Assembly (NCBI GenBank): GCA_029856045.1
Contig: JAHQWG010000028.1
Span: 320,730 to 384,729, forward strand
Length of the DNA stretch: 64,000 nucleotides
Reading direction: 5' to 3'
Source: Promethearchaeia archaeon
GTDB taxonomy: Archaea > Asgardarchaeota > Lokiarchaeia > Sigyniarchaeales > SOKP01
A program made the translations under genes and the position numbers. A model generated the notes under the pieces. That model was not told the DNA's origin, did not search any database, and worked only from the letters and a program-made list of their open reading frames with translations. Positions 1 to 40,598 of the stretch are shown piece after piece. Each line of letters opens with the position of its first letter. Within the stretch, counting starts at the first letter, position 1.

Positions 1-1890
1 TTTAGAAATAATGATTTAGATTTCCCGATAATTGTTAGTCCGAATCTAGGGATTCCTTGTTTTTTAAAATATGGTAATAAAAGAAAAAAGAGAGATTATT
101 CTTTCAATTTATTAGTAATCACAAAAAAAATTGAATCTAGTGCTATCTTAAAAACATCTCTAGAAGAAGCAATACAAATCATCCCTCTTAAAAGATTGAA
201 AATTGAGAAAGAATCTAAAGATAATTCCCTAAAAAATATTGCTATTCGAGGCATTCCAATAGATTTAAAACTTGATAAAATCGAGAACACCGATATCCTA
301 CCAATAAATCGGGTAGCTTTTCTTGAAGATCAGTATTATTTGAATCCTCAGGATTATCTTATTAAATTTAAGACATTTGGAAATTTGAATAAATTTTTTA
401 AAGTATCTGTATCATTTGCAGAAAATTCTGAGGTAAAGACTATCTTAAAACATCAAAATTTTATAATGTTCGATATCGTTCATAAAATCTCAGATAAATT
501 AAACCGAATAAATTATCATTCACTTGTGTTAACTAAACAAGATTGGAAAAATTTTACGTTTGTTCAAGCGACAGATATTCATCTCGCCAAAAGAAATGAC
601 CTAATTTTAGAAAAATTAAAGACAGATATATCAAAAAGAGTTTCGACTAAAATTAGAGATTTAATTAACGGATTAAATAAAAAAGAGATTACACCAATAG
701 AAAATAGATTAATAAATCCAAATAATCAACTTAGAAAATTTATAAAAATCATAAATAAAAAAGTCCAAAAAAACCAAATTGACTTTTTAGTTTTTACAGG
801 AGATATTATAGACTTCTGTTTAATTAGTGCAATTGAAAAATTAGAAGATATGACGGATTTCAACTTTCCAAATACAAACTGGAAGATTTTTCAAGATATA
901 ATTTTAAACAGAATAGATTATAATAAACCTGGGATGATAACCGGTGAAGAATTACTCTGTCCTATCTTCACTATTCCTGGAAATCATGATTTCCGCTTGG
1001 GACATTATGATTTAAGATGGGGATTTATGTATAGAAAATTAGGATTAGTATTATCAGAAGCAATAATGTTATACGATGAATGGGTTGCAGACCCAATAAG
1101 AGCACTAACTCCCTTAAGAAAATGCTTGATTAATTATTGGCAAGAAATTAATCCGGCTTTAGATTATATCATAACTTTAGGCAATAACCACTTTATTTTT
1201 ATGAACTCAGGGTATGATTCTGGCAAAGATTTTCGAGATTTCATTACGGGATTTCCATCATCAACTGGTATGACAGATGCTCAAATAAAACTTTTAGAGA
1301 ATTTCTTAAATTATAAATTTAAAGGAAATGAAAATATATTTCTTTTTACACATGGACCAATAATTAATCCCATAAAAAAGATAAAATTTATTCAAAAACT
1401 GAAAAAAAAGATAAATGTAGATACTTTTCTTAATTTTGAGGAATTAAAAGAATCAAATTTAGCCAAAAAGGGAATCCCAGAGGATAAAAGAAATATTGAT
1501 GATAAAATAAATCTCAAGTATGGAACTATTACTAATAACTGGCAAGAAATGATAAATTTTTGTAAAGATTTCTGTTTAATAGCGTTATGTGGGCATACGC
1601 ACACCTTAAGAGAGTTTAGATTACAAAATCCGATTAAAAAAAGTAAAGTATTCAAATCCGTTCCATTCAATTTGATAAAAATTGAAAATCCTGCAGCAGT
1701 ATTTTTCGATGATTATTCAGAGTTATTAAAAAATCAAAAAGATATATGGAATAAGAAACCTTTTTTGTTTCAGACGCCCGCTTTGGGTTTAGGTTCTTAC
1801 AAACATCCTACTATAGGTGGGGCATATAGAATAATTAAAATAAAAAAAGAAAAGATAGATTCTTTCAGGGTAAAATTTATACCAAAATGA
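1..1890 (+). CDS. Calcineurin-like metallophosphoesterase (5' end probably outside the window)
   Basis: Motifs TDIH, TGDIID, PGNHD, FTHG and GHTH. The frame is open from base 1 to the listed TTG at 196. Confidence 0.8.
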   Translation, partial: FRNNDLDFPIIVSPNLGIPCFLKYGNKRKKRDYSFNLLVITKKIESSAILKTSLEEAIQIIPLKRLKIEKESKDNSLKNIAIRGIPIDLKLDKIENTDILPINRVAFLEDQYYLNPQDYLIKFKTFGNLNKFFKVSVSFAENSEVKTILKHQNFIMFDIVHKISDKLNRINYHSLVLTKQDWKNFTFVQATDIHLAKRNDLILEKLKTDISKRVSTKIRDLINGLNKKEITPIENRLINPNNQLRKFIKIINKKVQKNQIDFLVFTGDIIDFCLISAIEKLEDMTDFNFPNTNWKIFQDIILNRIDYNKPGMITGEELLCPIFTIPGNHDFRLGHYDLRWGFMYRKLGLVLSEAIMLYDEWVADPIRALTPLRKCLINYWQEINPALDYIITLGNNHFIFMNSGYDSGKDFRDFITGFPSSTGMTDAQIKLLENFLNYKFKGNENIFLFTHGPIINPIKKIKFIQKLKKKINVDTFLNFEELKESNLAKKGIPEDKRNIDDKINLKYGTITNNWQEMINFCKDFCLIALCGHTHTLREFRLQNPIKKSKVFKSVPFNLIKIENPAAVFFDDYSELLKNQKDIWNKKPFLFQTPALGLGSYKHPTIGGAYRIIKIKKEKIDSFRVKFIPK

Positions 1891-1976
1891 ATTAAATAAA
1901 CTTATTAACCTAATAAGGAGTTCATGAAAATAAATTCAAATATTTTGAAAAAGAATAATATAAATAGATTTGAAAC

Positions 1977-3227
1977 ATGGAATTCGATATTTCTAATTAT
2001 TTGATTAATTTTTCACTTAAAAAAAATTTAGATAGCTTTCTTGATGATTCCCAGAAAACTCAAGTTGATGCTTTCAAAATAAAAAATAAATCGATAAAAA
2101 AGTATATTAATGAATTTTGGACATCAAAACAGAGACAAGCATCATCTATTCATGAAATTTCATATAGAGCTTGTTTTAAAGCACAACTTCCAAGATTTTT
2201 TATAAAACTATTAACGAAGCCAAATCATATTATTTATGATCCTTTTAGTGGTCGGGGTACAACCATAATTGAAGCGGGTTTACTAAACAGAAATGTAATT
2301 TCCAATGATATTAATCCTTTAAGTGAAATTTTAACACGACCGAGATTAAATATTCCCTCTATTGATGATATCAAAGATAGATTAGACAATATTCCGTTAA
2401 ATTTGGAATTCGAAAATGAAATTGATTTATCCATGTTTTATCACGAAAAAACAAAGAGGGAAATACTTTCTTTGAAAACTTATCTTTATAAAAGAAAAAT
2501 AGGAAATAAAGAGGATGATATTGATAGATGGATTCGAATGGTTACTACTAATAGATTAACTGGACATTCTAAAGGTTTCTTTTCTGTATATACTTTACCT
2601 CCAAATCAAGCGGTTTCACAAGAAAGACAAATTAAAATAAATAGAAAACATCGTCAAAAACCAGAGTACAGAGATGTGAAAAAAAGAATTATAAAAAAAT
2701 CAATCTCTTTACTACGAAACCTAACTATGCAACAAAAAAAAAAATTAAGAGAAATTTCTAAAAATGCAATATTTTTAACGAAAGATGCAAGAAATACACC
2801 AGAAATTAAAAAGAATTTGGTTCAATTAACGGTTACATCTCCCCCTTTTCTAAAAGTAGTGCAATATTCAAAGGATAATTGGTTAAGATGTTGGTTCAAT
2901 TCAATAGATGCAGAAGAAATATCTAAAAAAATTACAATGGAATCTGATGTTAATAGATGGTCAAAGATGATGGGTAATGTTTTTAAAGAATTATATAGAA
3001 TCACCAAAATAAATGGATGGGTTGCATTTGAAGTGGGAGAAGTCCAGAAAGGAAAAATTAAATTAGAAGAATATATTGTTCCTGAGGGATTAAATGCAGG
3101 ATTTATCTCTAAAGGAATTGTCATTAATGAACAGGAATTTACTAAAACATCTAATATTTGGGGTATAAAAAATAAAGAATCAGGGACTAATACAAATCGA
3201 ATTGTGTTATTTAAAAAAGAGAGCTAA
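1977..3227 (+). CDS. Orphan amino-DNA methyltransferase (N4-C/N6-A)
   Basis: Motif I DPFSGRGTT precedes motif IV-like TSPPF. No adjacent restriction endonuclease was recognised. Confidence 0.8.
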   Translation: MEFDISNYLINFSLKKNLDSFLDDSQKTQVDAFKIKNKSIKKYINEFWTSKQRQASSIHEISYRACFKAQLPRFFIKLLTKPNHIIYDPFSGRGTTIIEAGLLNRNVISNDINPLSEILTRPRLNIPSIDDIKDRLDNIPLNLEFENEIDLSMFYHEKTKREILSLKTYLYKRKIGNKEDDIDRWIRMVTTNRLTGHSKGFFSVYTLPPNQAVSQERQIKINRKHRQKPEYRDVKKRIIKKSISLLRNLTMQQKKKLREISKNAIFLTKDARNTPEIKKNLVQLTVTSPPFLKVVQYSKDNWLRCWFNSIDAEEISKKITMESDVNRWSKMMGNVFKELYRITKINGWVAFEVGEVQKGKIKLEEYIVPEGLNAGFISKGIVINEQEFTKTSNIWGIKNKESGTNTNRIVLFKKES

Positions 3228-3267
3228 AAAAAAAATTTGGTTATTAAAGAATTAATTATTTCTTAAA

Positions 3268-4749
3268 TTATTCCATTTCCTCTTCATTCAAATTCTCTTC
3301 TTCTTGTTCTTCTTCTATAGAGTCCTTTTCTTCATTTATTTTCTCTGTCTCTACTTTTTCTTCTTGAAAGCGTTTTTCTTCAACTTGAACTTTTTTAGGT
3401 TCAGTTTCTAATGGTTTTAGTCCTTTAATTTTTAATTTTTTCACTTGTAAAAAGTCTTGGAATTCTTTATCTCCTATCTTATTTATATCAAGTGCTTCAT
3501 TATCCTCTAAATATTTTTTGAAATCACTTACAATCAAAATTACTTCTTCCTGGTTATAACGTTTTCTCATTATTAACCCTTTCCTTTCTAAGACATATTC
3601 AGAATACCATATAAAAAAGAACACGGTAATAATTAACATTAAAAAATTACTAATTAAATTAACTTGATTGCGATCTGTAAAAAATCCTGGTAATGAACCT
3701 CCTCCTGTAATCATTATAATCTGGCCTTCAATATATAAAAATGTAAAAGCAAAAAGGAAAAAAGGCATATTATTGACATTGAATATTCGAGAGGTATAGA
3801 CTTTATCACCCAATCCTTTTAGAACCAAAATAGCTGTAGCTACCATTAATAATACGTCAAGAATTGCCATAATAACATCCGTACCTGTCGGTTGAGTTGC
3901 ACCACGTAATGCATTTGTGAAACTGAATACTCTATACCAAATAATGAGCCAAATAAAAATGTAAAACATAGAAGAAAATACATTAGGGGTTTCATTCTTT
4001 TTACTTCTTAAATGAAGATTAATTAAGCGCCATGATGTTATACCAATAATAATAAAGACGACAACATTCCAACCAATATATAAATATAAATTATCAAGAG
4101 GATCTCCTTGATTTACTGGCGCAAAATATGACCAAAATCCATAAAAAGTGCCAATTTGCATTAAGATAGGCGCAGCGAGTCCTAAAATTAAAAAGGCTAT
4201 TGCGATATATTCTTTTCTTTCAGATAATTCAAATTTTGTAAGAACTTTATTATTTATCTTAATAGATAAATCTTCAAATCCTACTTTGAGAAAAAATATT
4301 TGAATAATGTTCCATCCAAAATAAATTATAATGAAAATAGTTGGTAGAATTAAATCCCATCCCAAGAATTGTATGGATGATTGAGTAGAATGGCCTAATA
4401 GAAAGTATACTAGTATTATAACAAAACTTATTCCAAATGCAATTAAGAAACCAAAGATTTTATTCCTATCAAATCTTTTGTCTGTAGAAAATAAAAAATC
4501 ATTCAATTTCGGTATTAATCCAAAAAACATTAGAAATATAAAAGCTAATGAAATTGTTGTTGCTAAAAATAAAATTAGATCCCCCCAATTGGGAATTAAG
4601 CTTATTAAGGCAATCAAAATTGCAGAAATGAAGAAAATTATTGTATATAATAAATGGCTTTCATTAAAGATTCTATAAAAATATTTATCTAAAAGTTCTT
4701 GAACTTTAATTATAAATTTACTTTTGGGTTTTGGTTTTTCTTCTTCCAA
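3268..4749 (-). CDS. Polytopic membrane protein with an acidic C-terminal tail
   Basis: About 10 hydrophobic segments and an E/K-rich tail. Confidence 0.7.
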   Translation of the reverse strand: MEEEKPKPKSKFIIKVQELLDKYFYRIFNESHLLYTIIFFISAILIALISLIPNWGDLILFLATTISLAFIFLMFFGLIPKLNDFLFSTDKRFDRNKIFGFLIAFGISFVIILVYFLLGHSTQSSIQFLGWDLILPTIFIIIYFGWNIIQIFFLKVGFEDLSIKINNKVLTKFELSERKEYIAIAFLILGLAAPILMQIGTFYGFWSYFAPVNQGDPLDNLYLYIGWNVVVFIIIGITSWRLINLHLRSKKNETPNVFSSMFYIFIWLIIWYRVFSFTNALRGATQPTGTDVIMAILDVLLMVATAILVLKGLGDKVYTSRIFNVNNMPFFLFAFTFLYIEGQIIMITGGGSLPGFFTDRNQVNLISNFLMLIITVFFFIWYSEYVLERKGLIMRKRYNQEEVILIVSDFKKYLEDNEALDINKIGDKEFQDFLQVKKLKIKGLKPLETEPKKVQVEEKRFQEEKVETEKINEEKDSIEEEQEEENLNEEEME

Positions 4750-24161: not shown

Positions 24162-24704
24162 ATGACGGAATATAAATATATTTTTAAGGTTGTAATTTTA
24201 GGAGATGCCTCAGTTGGAAAAACTACTCTAACATATAGATTTATAACAGGAGATTTTTTACAAACCCTTAAAAGTTCAATTGGAACTACACTCTATTCTA
24301 AACTTGTGCAATATAAAGGAGATTCAATAAAATTACAAATTTGGGATTTTGCTGGAGAAAAAAGGTTTCGATTTTTATTACCAGGTTACATTGAAGGAGC
24401 TAATGGTGCTTTTTTAATGTATGATATTACAAGTTCAATCTCATTTTCACACCTTCAAGAATGGCTAGATATTGTAAGACAGCAAGAGGGGCATATCCCT
24501 ATAGTGTTAATTGGATCAAAGTTAGATTAAAATAAATACAGAACTGTTAGTAAAGAAGAAGGTCTAAGTGTTGCGAAGCAATTTGGTTTATTTTCATTTA
24601 TTGAGTTAAGCTCAAAATCAGGTAAAAATGTTGAAATTGCAATAGAACAGATGACTAAAATTTTACTGGCAGATACAACCAAAAAAGAGAGGATTCATCT
24701 CTAA
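24162..24704 (+). pseudogene. Rab-like GTPase with an in-frame TAA at 24528-24530
   Basis: GDASVGKT, WDFAGE, GSKLD*, then the same frame continues NKYRTVSKEEG...IELSSKSGKNVE...IHL* to 24704, supplying the G5 region. Confidence 0.8.
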
Positions 24705-25558: not shown

Positions 25559-27418
25559 TTGAATAAATTATTAGAACAAGAAGTGGAGGAAATGACTAAG
25601 AAATTAAACGAAACCAAAGAAAAATATCAGACCTCATATGAGTATAGTAAAGATGGCATTAGTTTGATAGATACGTATCATGCTAATGAAAGTATAATTA
25701 TGGATTTGAAAAATAGGAAATCAGGAATTGAAATATTAGATGTCATTCCATGGGGTACTCATCTCTGTCTTTTTTACGAAAAAAAAGAAGATTTATTTGA
25801 AATTTTAATACCTTATTTTAAAGCAGGATTAGAGAATAATGAATACTGTATTTGGGTAACTTCAGAACCACTAAATCAAAAAGATGTTGAAATAGGTATA
25901 AGTAAAGCTATACCAAATTTTGAGCAATATCTAAAAAGAAAACAAGTAGAGATAATTCCATATTTTGACTTTTATTTTAAAAATAACGAGTTTGATCTGC
26001 AAAGAGTTCTTTATGAATGGATTGAGAAATTAAAGTACGCCTTAAATGAAGGATATGATGGATTAAGAGTGACTGGGAATACTGCTTGGCTTGAGAAAAA
26101 AGATTGGAAAAGCTTTACTGATTATGAAGCAGAAATAAATAGTGTGATACCATTCCATAAGATGATTGCCATTTGCACTTATGCACTCGAGAAATGTGGA
26201 CCATTTGAATTATTAGATGTTATAAATAATCATCAATTTGCTCTTCTTAGACGGGAGGGCGAGTGGGAGTACTTTAAAAGCATGGAACAAATTAAGGTAG
26301 AACGAAAATTAAAAGAATCCGAAGAAAAATATCGAAATATTCTTGATAATATACAAGAAGGGTATCTTGAAGTAGATCTCAAGGGAAATTATACTTTTGT
26401 GAATGATTATCATTGTTATTTTTTTGGTATTTCGAAAGATGATACGATTGGAAATAATTATGCGGAATTTGTAGATAAAAAACAAAAAAAAAAATTATTC
26501 GAAATTTTCAACAAAGTATATAGAAGAGAAGTTCCCAGTGCAAGATTTGAGATTGAAGCTATTAGATATGACGGGGAGAAACGAATCTATGAGGGTACCT
26601 GTAATTTAAAATTAGATTCTAATGGTAGAAGGATTGGTTTTTATAGTCTTACTCGAGATATTACTGAAAGAAAAGAGGCAGAAAAGTTAATGATAGAGGA
26701 GTTAAATAAACTCACAGAACTTGATCAACTTAGAAGAGATTTTGTATCCAGAGCATCACATGAGTTAAAGACCCCATTAACGTCTATATATAGCGCTACC
26801 CAACTCCTTTTAGAGTTATATAAAGATCAATTAGGAAAAAATGCTTTAGAACTTGTTGAAATGATTGAGAAAGGAGGATATAGGTTGAAAGGATTGGTCG
26901 AAAAATTACTAGATTTTTCACGTATTGAATCAGGAAGATTCCAGTTATATAAGAAAATGGAGAATGCTACTGAGATTATTAGGGATTGTATAAGTAATAT
27001 GGCATATTTAGCAAATAAACGAAATATTATTTTGAATGTGGATCTTCCAGAAACATTTAATATAGAATTAGATAAAGTAAGATTTGAACAAGTTGTTATA
27101 AATTTATTATCAAATGCTATTAAAAACACTCCACCTATTGGTGATATTCAAATTAGTTTAAGCAAACAGAATGGATTTATGGTGTTTTCCGTAAAAGATA
27201 GTGGTGTAGGTCTCACAAGAAGTGAAAGGGGTAAGATTTTCAAAAAATTCGGAAAAATTGAAAGATATGGAAAGGGTTTAGATATAATTCCTGAAGGAGT
27301 CGGTCTCGGGCTTTTTATTTCGAAGGAAATAGTAGAGAATCATGGAGGTAAAATTTTTGTTGAGTCCAAAGGAAGAGATAAGGGTGCAAATTTTATTGTA
27401 AAATTACCTTTTAAATGA
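25559..27418 (+). CDS. Sensor histidine kinase (MEDS-PAS-HisKA-HATPase)
   Basis: PWGTHLCLFY (MEDS), RDITERK (PAC), SHELKTPL, NLLSNAIK, DSGVG, GVGLGL. Confidence 0.9.
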   Translation: MNKLLEQEVEEMTKKLNETKEKYQTSYEYSKDGISLIDTYHANESIIMDLKNRKSGIEILDVIPWGTHLCLFYEKKEDLFEILIPYFKAGLENNEYCIWVTSEPLNQKDVEIGISKAIPNFEQYLKRKQVEIIPYFDFYFKNNEFDLQRVLYEWIEKLKYALNEGYDGLRVTGNTAWLEKKDWKSFTDYEAEINSVIPFHKMIAICTYALEKCGPFELLDVINNHQFALLRREGEWEYFKSMEQIKVERKLKESEEKYRNILDNIQEGYLEVDLKGNYTFVNDYHCYFFGISKDDTIGNNYAEFVDKKQKKKLFEIFNKVYRREVPSARFEIEAIRYDGEKRIYEGTCNLKLDSNGRRIGFYSLTRDITERKEAEKLMIEELNKLTELDQLRRDFVSRASHELKTPLTSIYSATQLLLELYKDQLGKNALELVEMIEKGGYRLKGLVEKLLDFSRIESGRFQLYKKMENATEIIRDCISNMAYLANKRNIILNVDLPETFNIELDKVRFEQVVINLLSNAIKNTPPIGDIQISLSKQNGFMVFSVKDSGVGLTRSERGKIFKKFGKIERYGKGLDIIPEGVGLGLFISKEIVENHGGKIFVESKGRDKGANFIVKLPFK

Positions 27419-27580: not shown

Positions 27581-28864
27581 GTGAAAAAGATGTCAAATAA
27601 AACAAAATCTGATTTTTCATTTTCAGAAATAGAAAATAAATTAAAATCTAAACCCTTATTCACGCTTATATTTGTCGCAGTATTAATGACTTTATTTTTC
27701 ATCCAAGCTTTAAAGGCATATTTAACAGGATTATATATGGGCATGTATTATGCAGTATTTTCAGGGCAACCAGAATATTATCCCATCCTTCTTACCCTAA
27801 TTTTTTTCTTTTTACCAGCCTTGACCAATACAATTGGCAAGAAGATTGAAAAAAGTCGTTTTATGATTTTTTCTATATATGTCATTACTATCATTAGATT
27901 ATTAATGGCATTTCATCTACCATTTATATGGGAGGTTATCTGTTCGGGACTAATAATCACATTTTACGGCTTTTTTATGAGCACATTCCTTACGCTTTGG
28001 TCAGAAGAAGCTGATAATATTGAACTAAACCATAAAGTAGTAATAATTACATTTTCTATCTTTTGTGCTTTTCTAATTGATTATTTGATTAGAACAATTG
28101 GTTTTTCCCAAGATATTTCATTATTACCACCGGGTTTAATCGCAGATTATTGGTACATAACGCAATATATCTGGTTATTTATTCAAATTCCCTTAAGCTT
28201 TTTTTGTATCTATTTTATGAGATTGCATTTTCCAAGATTTTCTACAAAACCTAAAGAAGAAATAGAAAAAAAAGATAATTTCAGCACTCTTTATTCCCTA
28301 ATCTTTATAGGCTTAGGAATGTTCTTGTTTCTCTTAATTAATCTCTTTCTTTATCCCAACTCAATTGCCCAATATACTGCAACTAGTTATTCTTTTAACA
28401 ATATTTTAAATATAGTTGCACTAATGATTGCGATTTGTATAATACTATTTGTAAACGTAGATTTAATTTCAAATATAAAAATAATAGGTATTCTGAATGG
28501 TTTTATGATTTTGTCTCTGTGTCTATTCCTATTTCTTGGAAAAATTTTAACCTATATTGCAAGTATCCTTATTTCAATTTCTCTCGTAATCATGTATTTA
28601 AATTTCTATTTATTATTGTTCCGATTATTAAAAATAAATTTCAAATGGGAGAAATTAAAAACAATTTCTAATTCTATAACAATTGGACTCGCCTTTTTAG
28701 TTTTATTTATTTTTTTGCATGCCTTTGCAGATGAATGGGCATATACATTTAAATTTTTAAAAGATCTAGGGCCATTCATATTACTGCTAGCAGGAATTAT
28801 TTTTTCTATTTCAACTTGGTTTTCAATTATATTCAAATCAAAAAAGGAGGAGGTAATTAGATGA
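27581..28864 (+). CDS. ~12-TM membrane protein, candidate CWH43/PGAP2IP-type TM region
   Basis: Polytopic. Its stop overlaps the start of the EEP gene (ATGA). Confidence 0.6.
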   Translation: MKKMSNKTKSDFSFSEIENKLKSKPLFTLIFVAVLMTLFFIQALKAYLTGLYMGMYYAVFSGQPEYYPILLTLIFFFLPALTNTIGKKIEKSRFMIFSIYVITIIRLLMAFHLPFIWEVICSGLIITFYGFFMSTFLTLWSEEADNIELNHKVVIITFSIFCAFLIDYLIRTIGFSQDISLLPPGLIADYWYITQYIWLFIQIPLSFFCIYFMRLHFPRFSTKPKEEIEKKDNFSTLYSLIFIGLGMFLFLLINLFLYPNSIAQYTATSYSFNNILNIVALMIAICIILFVNVDLISNIKIIGILNGFMILSLCLFLFLGKILTYIASILISISLVIMYLNFYLLLFRLLKINFKWEKLKTISNSITIGLAFLVLFIFLHAFADEWAYTFKFLKDLGPFILLLAGIIFSISTWFSIIFKSKKEEVIR

Positions 28865-29688
28865 GGAAAAATCATAGAATTATTCTTATATTTTTATTTT
28901 TCATTCCACTGATATTTTCAATTATAATGTTTGGAGTTAGCGAAACACCTGTAGAAAGTTCAACAAAAAATGAATTTACGTTTATGACATATAACATTCA
29001 TTTTGGACAAGGTGAAGATAATTTACTAAATTTTGAACGGTTAGCACAGAACATTTTAGTCGCAGAGCCCGATTTCATTGGACTTCAAGAAGTAGAAAAT
29101 GGTAGAATGACAACTCAAGGGGTAGATATGACATTTTGGTTAGCTAAAAGATTAAATATGTATTACTATTATTACCCTGCAGAAAGTGAACATTCGTTTG
29201 GTTGCGCACTCCTAAGTAAATATCCTATAATATTTAAAATGGGCGAACAGATACCCAGCAATTCTATGAGAAGGGTTTATATCCATTGCGTGGTTGAAGT
29301 AAATAATACACTCCAATTTGATGTATTTGTAACACATCTTGGGATTAGAGCAGAGAATTTAACAAGACAAGTAAATTTTCTCGTCGAAAATATCCAGGAA
29401 GTTTTTATTTCTTCTACAAAACCAAAAATTTTAATGGGAGACTTTAATCTACGTGAGAATTGGACTCATCCAGAAGAATCAATACTTTATCCAATTCATT
29501 ACTATTTTAACAATACCGCTGAAGCAGTTCCTATTGAACAACGAGCAAGAATAGATCATATTTACGCCTCGGGTTATCAAGAGATTCTTGATTACAATAT
29601 ACATAGCGATATGCTCCCCGGAGTTGATACTCCCGCTGAATTTGGTTCTGACCATTTACCTACCGTAGCAACTTTAACTTTTCCTTAA
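28861..29688 (+). CDS. Membrane-anchored endonuclease/exonuclease/phosphatase (EEP), CWH43-like
   Basis: N-terminal TM; TYNIHFG, GLQEV, GCALLSKYPI, VTHL, MGDFN, IDHI, SDHLP. SD GGAGGAGGT upstream. Confidence 0.85.
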   Translation: MRKNHRIILIFLFFIPLIFSIIMFGVSETPVESSTKNEFTFMTYNIHFGQGEDNLLNFERLAQNILVAEPDFIGLQEVENGRMTTQGVDMTFWLAKRLNMYYYYYPAESEHSFGCALLSKYPIIFKMGEQIPSNSMRRVYIHCVVEVNNTLQFDVFVTHLGIRAENLTRQVNFLVENIQEVFISSTKPKILMGDFNLRENWTHPEESILYPIHYYFNNTAEAVPIEQRARIDHIYASGYQEILDYNIHSDMLPGVDTPAEFGSDHLPTVATLTFP

Positions 29689-29702: not shown

Positions 29703-31127
29703 ATGGCATTTAAAGATGAGAGAAGATTATTAGGGGAACATCTTACATCTACAGAAATCTTTGAGGAATTGATTTTTCCTGAAATAAAAAATGATCTATA
29801 TAATTTTTTATGGATTGATCTTTATGCTGGAGAGGGAAATCTGATTTTTCCAATATTAAATCATCTTCGTAAAGAGGAAAGAATTGATTTTTTTAAAGAT
29901 CATATATTTTTATCAGATATTCAGGAAAAAATGGTTCATAAGTGCATTGAAACTGCTAAAAATTATGGTATTGAAGAAAATATTGCTCAACAAAACATTA
30001 AATTACATGATAATTTAAAGAATATCCCAGTATTTTTAAAAAAAAATAAATATCCTGTTTATCATATTACGAATCCCCCTTATTTATATATAGGATATAT
30101 CCGAAAGCATAAAGAAACACAAAAATATGTATCCTATTTCGATAATAAAAATAAGGGGTATCAGGATTTATATCAAATTGCTATGGTGAATGATCTAAGG
30201 AATAGACTTGCAAATTTAATATATATTATTCCATCAAATTTTTTATTTGGTGCTTCAGTATCCAATAAGATTAGAGAAGATTTCCTAAAAAATTACTATA
30301 TTAAAAGAGTTATTATCTTCGAAAAACAAATCTTCGAGTTTACTGGAACAAATATATGCTTATGTTTTTTTAGAAGAAAGCAGATACCATCAATTGAAAT
30401 TCAAGAATTTAATGGAATAAAAGTTAAAAAAGAAAACCAGATCTTAGAAAAAATTTATACTTTAAAACCTAAATTTAAATATAGAGCTGGCTCAGAATTT
30501 GAAGAATTTCTCAAAAATCATCGAGCTAATAATCCTCCACACATTAAATATTATTTATTAATGGATGAAGTATCAAAAAACAACGGAATTAATAAAATTG
30601 ACGTAATTGATGCAAATAATTATCAAAATAATGAATATAAAAAATTAACGCTTGAAGTTAATGAAGGATTAGAAAACAGAATCAAATCGAATATATTATT
30701 TGTTCGAACAGTGGATACAGGCTCAGATGAGGGAAGAGTAGGGATTAATATAATTAAAAATGAATTTAATGTTGATGGGATTCTTGTTTCAGGTAATACA
30801 TATAGGACACATCCAATTCAAATTTTTTTCGTATCTCAAATCTCAGTAGAAAATCAGAAATTGCTAAAGAATTATTTTAATCTCTTATTGGAACACTTTC
30901 GGGAAAAACTTGATAGTGAATTTCTGACAACATATAAATATTCAAATGCAAAATATACTAGAAAGTATTTAGGACTTACATATGTGAAGAGATTAATTGA
31001 AACATATCCATATTTAGATTTTAATAAGGAGCAGAATGAAACTCTAAAAAATTTGATTCTCAATAATGATGTTGGGGGAATTTTGAATTTATTAGAGAAT
31101 CATAAGAAGCATTATTTAACTAAATAA
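29703..31127 (+). CDS. N6-adenine DNA methyltransferase (gamma-like), orphan
   Basis: DLYAGEGN, ITNPPY, YIIPSNF. Confidence 0.8.
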   Translation: MAFKDERRLLGEHLTSTEIFEELIFPEIKNDLYNFLWIDLYAGEGNLIFPILNHLRKEERIDFFKDHIFLSDIQEKMVHKCIETAKNYGIEENIAQQNIKLHDNLKNIPVFLKKNKYPVYHITNPPYLYIGYIRKHKETQKYVSYFDNKNKGYQDLYQIAMVNDLRNRLANLIYIIPSNFLFGASVSNKIREDFLKNYYIKRVIIFEKQIFEFTGTNICLCFFRRKQIPSIEIQEFNGIKVKKENQILEKIYTLKPKFKYRAGSEFEEFLKNHRANNPPHIKYYLLMDEVSKNNGINKIDVIDANNYQNNEYKKLTLEVNEGLENRIKSNILFVRTVDTGSDEGRVGINIIKNEFNVDGILVSGNTYRTHPIQIFFVSQISVENQKLLKNYFNLLLEHFREKLDSEFLTTYKYSNAKYTRKYLGLTYVKRLIETYPYLDFNKEQNETLKNLILNNDVGGILNLLENHKKHYLTK

Positions 31128-39226: not shown

Positions 39227-39904
39227 ATGAAAATAATAGTATTCAGCCCTCATCCTGATGATGAGATTTTTGGTTGTGGAGGTAGCATATTAAAATGGAT
39301 GGAGGAAGGACATGATGTCCACCTTATTTATATCTCTGACAATAGAGCTATAATAACTTGGGCAAAAAAACATGGATCCTTTATTGAAACTGAAGAAAAT
39401 AAAAACCTAACCGAAGAAGAAATAGCAAGGATTGGACTTCAAGAGGCAAGAGAAGCTGCAAAATTTTTAGGATTACCAGATAAAAAAGTACATTTATTTA
39501 AATTTCCAGATCAAAAAGTTAAAGACCATATTGATAAAGGTGTAGAACTTGCGAAACCTATTATAAAAGATGCCAATAGATGTGTTATTCCAAGTGCTAA
39601 TAATGAACACCCAGATCATCAAGCAACATATGAAATTACAGTAAGATCGGCTGAAGAACTCAATTTAAAAAATCTAGAGTTTTATGTGTATGCTTTATAC
39701 AATCCTTTACGAGCAGAAGGCGAGCATTTAGTTAAAATTAAGATGGGTGATTTACGCCTTAAATTATATGAAGCTCTACAGATTTATAAATCCCAGTTTT
39801 GGGATAAAGAAATGATTCGTAACAGTATGTGGGTTAAAGGAAAGCGTAGAGAAAGATTCGGATATTATAAATTTGAAGATATTGGAAAACATTATAACTT
39901 TTAA
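39227..39904 (+). CDS. PIG-L/LmbE family deacetylase (paralogue A)
   Basis: SPHPDDE...HPDH. Confidence 0.9.
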   Translation: MKIIVFSPHPDDEIFGCGGSILKWMEEGHDVHLIYISDNRAIITWAKKHGSFIETEENKNLTEEEIARIGLQEAREAAKFLGLPDKKVHLFKFPDQKVKDHIDKGVELAKPIIKDANRCVIPSANNEHPDHQATYEITVRSAEELNLKNLEFYVYALYNPLRAEGEHLVKIKMGDLRLKLYEALQIYKSQFWDKEMIRNSMWVKGKRRERFGYYKFEDIGKHYNF

Positions 39905-39923: not shown

Positions 39924-40598
39924 TTAGAAATTATAAAATTTACCAACATCTTTTAGTTTATAATAACCATATCTGTCTCTTCGTTTTCCTCGGATCCATA
40001 AGCTTTGAGGCGCCATATCCTTGGTATAAAATTGTGAGCTATGTAATTTTAAAGCTTCATACGCTTTAAAGCGAAAATCTCCTACCTTAACTTTCTTTAA
40101 ATGTTCCCCTTCTGCTTTCAACGGATTATATAAAGCAAATACATAAAATACAAGATTTTGAAGGTTAAGTTCTTGTGCTACCTTTATTGCAATATCATGT
40201 GTAGCTTGATGGTCGGGATGTTCATTATTTCCACTCGGGATAACAAACATGTTTGTATCTTTTATATTATCTTTAATTTTTTCAACCGCCTCATCGATAT
40301 GGTTCTTGAGTTCTTGATCATAAAATCTTAAGAAATGACGATTTTCTTTTTTTATTCCTAAGAATTCAGCAGATGAATCTGCCTCTTTTAATCTTATTTC
40401 AGCTAGTTGGTCTTCATTTATTCTGGTTTCTTTGCAATCTTTAAGTTCATTTCTTTCTCTTGCCTTACGATACCCAGCTCTTCCATCAGTAAACCAAATT
40501 ATATGAATATTATACCCCTTTTCGAGCCATTTTAAGATTGAGCCACCTGCTCCAAAGACTTCATCATCTGGATGAGGGGCAAAAATTATTATCTTCAT
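39924..40598 (-). CDS. PIG-L/LmbE family deacetylase (paralogue B)
   Basis: APHPDDE, TDG, HPDH, HSSQ. SD GGAGG lies just after the carB stop. Confidence 0.9.
   Translation of the reverse strand: MKIIIFAPHPDDEVFGAGGSILKWLEKGYNIHIIWFTDGRAGYRKARERNELKDCKETRINEDQLAEIRLKEADSSAEFLGIKKENRHFLRFYDQELKNHIDEAVEKIKDNIKDTNMFVIPSGNNEHPDHQATHDIAIKVAQELNLQNLVFYVFALYNPLKAEGEHLKKVKVGDFRFKAYEALKLHSSQFYTKDMAPQSLWIRGKRRDRYGYYKLKDVGKFYNF

Follow-up and report, generated by a model that had tools for sequence, protein, structure and literature searches.

PGAP2IP/Cwh43 is the least understood enzyme of glycosylphosphatidylinositol (GPI)-anchor lipid remodelling: how it works and what its membrane domain does are unclear, and variants of CWH43 have been linked to hydrocephalus. 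Mammalian PGAP2IP (gene CWH43), the equivalent of the C-terminal two-thirds of fungal Cwh43, is built from six plus six transmembrane (TM) helices followed by an extracytoplasmic/luminal endonuclease/exonuclease/phosphatase (EEP) domain. Here we analyse a pair of overlapping genes with the same 6+6 TM and EEP layout from a Promethearchaeia archaeon (GenBank assembly GCA_029856045.1), located at positions 27,581 to 29,688 of a 64,000-nucleotide stretch of contig JAHQWG010000028.1 (positions 320,730 to 384,729, forward strand; hereafter the window). We consider it probable (about 0.7) that the two genes encode two subunits of one membrane enzyme, a split PGAP2IP-like protein made up of a major facilitator superfamily (MFS)-fold subunit, a counterpart of the thirteenth helix of single-chain relatives and an outward-facing EEP phosphodiesterase. 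In contrast to PGAP2IP/Cwh43, the likeness here is spread over two genes, is drawn through Pfam models, and occurs in a genome in which no GPI pathway was found. Pfam describes PGAP2IP by three models, PF23022 (6TM_1st), PF23021 (6TM_2nd) and PF23226 (EEP). Cwh43 exchanges the glycerolipid of the GPI anchor for ceramide or ceramide-phosphate (PMC4962981). At 424 and 275 aa, the paired products come near CWH43 in combined size (699 aa; bioRxiv 10.64898/2026.05.01.722067).

Among prokaryotic proteins, fused TM-EEP proteins of 645-694 aa, including a paralogue in this same genome (P0419), are homologous to the pair in both modules and share its topology and catalytic residues; they differ in being single chains and in having an EEP domain only about 30% identical to that of the window. 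They belong to an uncharacterised 'Asgard/Chloroflexus group' next to Cwh43p and PGAP2IP (PMC10704324), so that the kinship of Asgard proteins with Cwh43/PGAP2IP at the EEP level is already published; it is also reflected in Pfam-based protein names (e.g. P0095). The N-acetylglucosamine phosphodiesterases (GlcNAc-PDases), secreted Clostridia-type metal-dependent EEPs that remove phosphocholine or phosphoethanolamine from GlcNAc-6-P, fall into the same EEP subgroup as the Asgard/Chloroflexota subcluster by the clustering of that study, and differ in being soluble proteins with a signal peptide and no membrane partner (PMC10704324). Our literature search returned no paper on a split form, on an MFS fold in CWH43, or on Asgard CWH43 homologues beyond the EEP cluster of PMC10704324; relative to the papers found, the division into two genes, the transitive link over the full length and the MFS fold described below are thus new.

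The window is AT-rich (GC about 0.23-0.34), and its host is a Loki-type Asgard archaeon in which Ras/Roc GTPase genes are present. The features of the pair, with residues of the first protein numbered from an upstream GTG, are listed here.

27590..28864, plus strand: gene for the 12-TM subunit with predicted MFS fold, 424 aa from the ATG at 27590
27656..28228, plus strand: predicted N-lobe, TM1-TM6 (residues 26-216; helix limits from the model)
28286..28858, plus strand: predicted C-lobe, TM7-TM12 (residues 236-426), the half that corresponds to the match to Pfam 6TM_2nd_PGAP2IP
28846..28854, plus strand: GGAGGAGGT, resembling a Shine-Dalgarno element, within the 3' end of the first gene, read from the sequence
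28861..28864, plus strand: ATGA start/stop overlap of the two genes, read from the sequence
28861..29688, plus strand: gene for P0002, the EEP phosphodiesterase subunit with a membrane anchor, 275 aa from ATG
28876..28941, plus strand: N-terminal TM anchor of the EEP subunit, about residues 6-27, preceded by MRKNHR, assigned from the sequence
28969..29685, plus strand: EEP catalytic domain, residues 37-275

Counted from the in-frame GTG at 27581, the first open reading frame (ORF) spans 27581..28864 (+) and 427 aa (P0001); the ATG at 27590 is the start of the public gene call, and the N-termini of orthologues align to that Met. The GGAGGAGGT element is spaced 6 nt from the ATG of the EEP gene, and the ATGA overlap suggests translational coupling. 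The initial annotation of this DNA, made from the letters alone, had described the gene pair, the overlap and the upstream Shine-Dalgarno element, and each of these was borne out; the EEP motifs that it quoted are likewise all present in the second ORF, which contains YNIHFGQG...FERLAQNILVAEPDFIGLQE...LAKRLNMYYYYYPAESEHSFGCALLSKYPI. Homologues of both proteins come almost only from metagenome-assembled genomes of Promethearchaeota, Loki-, Hel-, Thor- and Odinarchaeota.

The pair is a real two-gene split and not a frameshift, as had been proposed from the overlap. In all 11 related loci, which were fetched with the TM profile, a TM ORF is directly followed by an EEP ORF, which goes beyond chance. 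The junctions measure -4, +3, +7 or +9 nt, so that the reading frames differ between loci (the ATGA overlap recurs in L004, L005 and L010 as well as in L007 and L011, orthologues from the same genus), and every EEP ORF starts from a Met of its own and encodes a separate hydrophobic N-terminal helix. Mean column identity is 57% in the TM family and likewise in the EEP family; both ORFs of the window are 44-98% identical to many homologues, and many TM and EEP homologues probably share contigs, as the equal lengths of their contigs indicate. Since the flanking genes vary between genera while the TM-EEP adjacency is kept, the unit consists of these two genes alone. Given the fused paralogue in the same genome, one might suspect that a fused gene has been frameshifted or is decaying, or that the assembly is wrong; a split kept in at least 11 genomes with varied junction lengths and frames, a Met and TM anchor of its own for each EEP ORF, the many homologues of both ORFs and invariant catalytic residues make this explanation practically negligible, and we excluded frameshift, pseudogene and assembly error.

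Both halves map onto the fused family. Longer relatives of the EEP subunit number 373 proteins, most of them 645-694 aa long, with a TM region of about 400 aa ahead of the EEP domain, and hosted by Asgard archaea (Promethearchaeota, Heimdall-, Hod- and Njordarchaeia) or Anaerolineales. In profile-profile comparison with hhalign, the TM family (A1) aligned with columns 24-408 of the fused family (A3) over 359 columns (probability 99.5, E 4.6e-23), and the EEP family (A2) aligned with its columns 448-687 (E 1.5e-57). Helix 13 of the fused proteins fills the stretch between these matches and can be equated with the N-terminal anchor of P0002, because the A2 profile aligns from positions 5-9 onwards in many fused proteins. 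An exhaustive HMMER search of 1.84 billion representatives with the TM profile returned just 77 proteins, either about 400 aa or 620-770 aa in length besides shorter, apparently partial sequences, and an EEP domain is carried by 9 of the 10 long matches that were scanned.

The fused paralogue of the host genome, P0419, has 682 aa, lies on another contig, C53 (L002:142-2190, +), and scores 77.2 bits with PF23226. Identity to P0002 is 31% in its EEP domain, and in its TM region a match to P0001 is seen at the profile level only; pairwise BLASTP between P0001 and that TM region found nothing. In genome G252, on contig C86 (L009:171-1256 and 1501-3588), a fused paralogue ends some 245 nt before a split pair that follows on the same strand, a tandem layout that fits duplication followed by fission. 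A second split lineage was observed in higher-GC Asgard archaea (L021:530-2574, -; L022:527-2577, -), where TM proteins of 399 and 401 aa overlap a 281-aa EEP protein. As a separate lineage, it suggests more than one, independent fission.

The best Pfam family of the EEP subunit is PF23226, the PGAP2IP C-terminal domain, with 77.3 bits at a cut-off of 27, compared with 62.2 bits for the generic EEP model PF03372 over profile positions 1-225. This agrees with the earlier proposal that it stands nearer to the Cwh43 C-terminal domain than to a generic EEP. The match to PF23226 spans only profile positions 2-156 of 239, and the model also matches in 2 of 14 control bacterial genomes, a caveat on its specificity; all 35 fused relatives match it. 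The full catalytic set of the EEP superfamily (N, E, H, D-x-N, D, D-H) is found in P0002, as N45, E77, H159, D194, N196, D232, D264 and H265, and these residues are invariant in 32 EEP-family members. There are 184 homologues of similar length, and relatives in the Protein Data Bank (PDB) include 3teb (E 1e-13) and beta-hemolysin/sphingomyelinase.

In a quick maximum-likelihood tree of EEP domains (69 rows, with long branches and an insecure root), the split EEP family of the window forms one clade with 99% support by the Shimodaira-Hasegawa-like approximate likelihood ratio test, and the EEPs of the second split lineage are separate from this clade and not sister to it. The fused proteins of Anaerolineales (Chloroflexota; P0265, P0286, P0300 and relatives) nest within an Asgard fused clade, which points to inter-domain transfer in one direction or the other. 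The sampled bacterial EEPs that lack a TM region fall outside the TM-linked groups. The EEP of the window therefore groups with TM-linked forms in the sampled tree and does not nest among ordinary bacterial EEPs.

Twelve TM helices are predicted for P0001, in a 6+6 layout with a basic central loop, and the AlphaFold2 model of the protein, computed from a 34-sequence alignment, is confident (mean predicted local distance difference test score, pLDDT, 83.6; predicted template modelling score 0.87). Searched against the PDB with Foldseek, the model gave 192 matches at E<=1e-3, and the best 50 are all MFS transporters with TM-scores of 0.55-0.58; its structural neighbours include Spns1/Spns2, MFSD2A and FLVCR1/2. 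The TM subunit is thus predicted to adopt an MFS fold of two six-helix lobes, which the initial annotation had not anticipated. At the sequence level, PF07690 (MFS_1) is weakly matched by 3 of the 34 TM-family members (best E 4.3e-4) and not by P0001 itself, and the TM-family profile matched no PDB sequence at E<=10. A stretch resembling MFS motif A, P79-A-L-T-N-T-I-G-K-K88, lies in the TM2-TM3 turn, a likeness judged by eye, and the N-lobe outer loop GFSQDISLLPPG (174-187) is conserved in the columns of the family alignment. Since the P0001 model matches MFS structures and PF07690 is weakly matched within the family, the two '6TM' domains by which PGAP2IP is described resemble the N-lobe and C-lobe of an MFS fold, if the model is right. 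MFS lipid transporters coupled to an enzyme are known, LplT-Aas being an example. The present case differs in that P0001 itself has no significant sequence match and that its partner would be an outward-facing EEP.

Size and layout had also led to the suggestion that the upstream protein resembles the TM region of CWH43. The 6+6 layout and a transitive profile link to the PGAP2IP TM domains uphold this, whereas P0001 itself matches neither TM model: it has no match to PF23021 at E<=10, and PF23022 has no match at E<=10 in its genome and none among the 34 TM-family members. PF23021 is matched by 2 of these 34 members (best E 4.6e-4). In G294:C99, a close orthologue of P0001 (A1 E 1.7e-153), the C-terminal half matches PF23021 positions 3-146 with 22.1 bits (E 2.1e-4), below the cut-off, and in the second split lineage the TM subunits score as much as 27.1 bits, with the cut-off at 27. 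For the N-lobe, the link to PF23022 consists only in the transitive alignments spanning it.

Across 301 Asgard genomes, strong matches to PF23021 (68-111 bits) and PF23022 (35-46 bits), all over the cut-offs, fall in the same five genes, and neither model has a match in the 14 control genomes. These five proteins of 599-663 aa (L015-L019, from genomes G268, G226, G111, G298 and G178) carry PF23022, PF23021 and PF23226, all over the cut-off, and by sequence they qualify far better than the pair of the window as candidates for the prokaryotic proteins most closely related to eukaryotic PGAP2IP. They align with the fused family over their full length (E 3.9e-72, 616 columns) and also with their TM region alone (probability 99.2, E 8e-20, 338 columns; reversed-sequence controls for the latter gave E 0.04-0.24 over 17-89 columns). 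Judged by these profile comparisons, the pair is a split, distant relative of eukaryotic PGAP2IP/Cwh43 and is a side branch, with much closer full-architecture PGAP2IP-like proteins held by other Asgard lineages. The five proteins clearly stand nearer to the eukaryote-derived models than the pair does. The three PGAP2IP domains are not found in one polypeptide here; they correspond to two ORFs, a split kept in 11 loci.

The predicted cytoplasmic loops of P0001 contain 16 Lys and Arg residues, compared with 2 in its outer loops, and P0002 has four N-x-S/T sequons, at 148, 166, 200 and 217. Because of this loop charge bias, together with the MRKNHR preceding the anchor and the sequons, the EEP catalytic domain is placed on the cell exterior, topologically the side of the endoplasmic reticulum lumen. 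When P0001 and P0002 were predicted as a complex, the interface score ipSAE (interaction prediction score from aligned errors) was 0.52 (runs 0.49, 0.52 and 0.66), compared with 0.01 for the best control. This passes a mark that is reached by 58 of 80 solved complexes and by 2 of 110 mismatched pairs; passes at 0.60 or under comprise 7 of the 80 solved complexes and both of the passing mismatched pairs. The complex runs share at least 64% of their contacts, and the partner has a pLDDT of at least 80. The prediction is consistent with a two-subunit enzyme but is not proof of one, and the fused homologues provide a strong prior.

We read the two genes as encoding one enzyme because each is homologous to one half of the fused proteins, their adjacency is conserved, the catalytic residues are intact and the membrane subunit has a predicted MFS fold. 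Its likely role would be that of an ecto-phosphodiesterase of two subunits, with a lipid head group or a lipid-linked glycan as its target. In such a scheme, the 12-helix subunit (N-in, C-in) would bind a membrane lipid or lipid-linked glycan and present it laterally or via its central cavity, and the EEP domain, tethered by its own N-in/C-out helix, would depend on metal to cleave or transfer the head-group phosphodiester on the outer side of the membrane. Characterised relatives in the same EEP subgroup suggest, by analogy, two kinds of candidate substrate: lipid head groups of the phospho-inositol or phospho-sugar type, or phosphocholine/phosphoethanolamine on a sugar.

Several points weigh against this proposal. 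P0001 matches no Pfam or NCBIfam model, its MFS fold is a prediction, and such a fold could also mean ordinary solute transport. The TM part is linked to the PGAP2IP TM domains by the transitive chain through the fused family alone: when A1 was compared directly with the TM region of the Pfam-verified PGAP2IP-like proteins, hhalign gave a non-significant match (probability 3-4.4, E 0.009-0.014), although that alignment is collinear over 335 columns. The modelled complex scores above the mark, but as a weak pass and with no interface returned. The choice of substrate is purely inferential, and the role is built on sequences and models.

The data also bear on other functions. Like the characterised GlcNAc-PDases, the EEP might trim zwitterionic phosphocholine or phosphoethanolamine groups, bound as phosphodiesters, from surface glycans or lipid-linked oligosaccharides, with the MFS-fold subunit as a mere anchor or scaffold. 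The placement of the Asgard/Chloroflexota subcluster in the same EEP group as the GlcNAc-PDases (PMC10704324), the rank of PF23226 as the best model for the EEP and the predicted outward orientation of the catalytic domain would all suit this. Yet the TM subunit is as conserved as the EEP (57% each), which argues for more than an anchor role, and the characterised GlcNAc-PDases are secreted, soluble enzymes that lack a TM partner (PMC10704324); we regard trimming as unlikely. If the two genes instead shared an operon while serving independent functions, one as a solute MFS transporter and the other as an unrelated secreted nuclease or phosphatase, the MFS fold, the name 'MFS family permease' given to homologues by some sources and the presence of nucleases in the EEP superfamily would be accounted for. 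This is very hard to reconcile with the fusion of both modules into one polypeptide in hundreds of homologues, with an adjacency kept across genera despite changing flanks, and with a TM profile that matches almost nothing beyond split or EEP-fused forms, and we give it little credence.

A role in lipid head-group or anchor remodelling had been put forward for the pair. In its strictest form, the pair would be the functional counterpart of Cwh43/PGAP2IP and would swap the lipid moiety of a GPI-like protein or glycolipid anchor on an inositol-phosphate-linked glycan. The transitive full-length homology to the PGAP2IP architecture speaks for such a role, as do the eight PIG-L-family deacetylase genes of the genome and a 2026 study reporting that eukaryotic components of GPI synthesis, maturation and transamidase are Asgard-derived (PMC12872458). 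PIG-L is however a broad family, present in 8 of the 14 control genomes, and, seen from the Pfam-verified PGAP2IP-like clade, the pair lies on a side branch. Six GPI-pathway families, Per1, Peptidase_C13 (GPI8), PIG-U, PIG-M, PigN and PIGA, had no match at E<=0.01 in this 100%-complete genome; as four of these searches matched no control genome and PIGA matched one below the cut-off, absence is weak evidence for these five. A GPI role is thus without genomic support here, and we consider it quite improbable.

Regarded as two subunits of one PGAP2IP-like enzyme, the pair offers a small prokaryotic relative that is tractable for structure determination and enzymology, both as a single chain in its fused relatives and naturally cut into two subunits. 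The prokaryotic relatives suggest that the membrane domain of PGAP2IP is an MFS-type lipid-handling module, and for eukaryogenesis they would add a further membrane-lipid or glycoconjugate enzyme to those with Asgard relatives over the whole protein. The closest relatives occur in other Asgard lineages and the family is also present in Anaerolineales, so that descent could have run in more than one direction. It is a rather improbable extension that the pair and the fused Asgard family represent a prokaryotic antecedent of GPI lipid remodelling, in which the pair of MFS-fold lobes would gate a lipid anchor to the outward EEP, and the EEP would exchange, rather than merely cleave, the lipid on a phospho-inositol or phospho-sugar head group. 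Were this improbable scenario true, eukaryotic PGAP2IP/Cwh43 would itself be an MFS-fold-plus-EEP machine inherited from Asgard archaea.

A 209-aa membrane protein encoded on another contig (L029:3737-4366, -; G000:C27:381275-381814) matches both DUF998 (46.3 bits) and Frag1/PGAP2 (PF10277, 38.3-39.2 bits); it is better explained as a DUF998 protein, has no link to the pair, and we did not use it as support. The gene for an Rce1-like CAAX protease (L029:2539-3594) adjoins it. In the window, the pair is directly preceded by a gene for a MEDS-PAS-HisKA-HATPase sensor kinase (25559-27418, +), which stands beside it only within the genus, and an ORF of 474 aa with a weak match to N6_Mtase (33 bits) starts 14 nt past the EEP stop (29703-31127, +). 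Neither is found beside the pair in other genera, and both were rejected as parts of the unit. Some 10 kb downstream of the pair are two of the eight genes of the PIG-L family (LmbE-type deacetylases; 39236-39646, +; 40179-40586, -). Further upstream, a 122-aa Ras/Roc small-GTPase ORF (24162-24530, +) covers profile positions 1-115 of 162 and may be a truncated gene.

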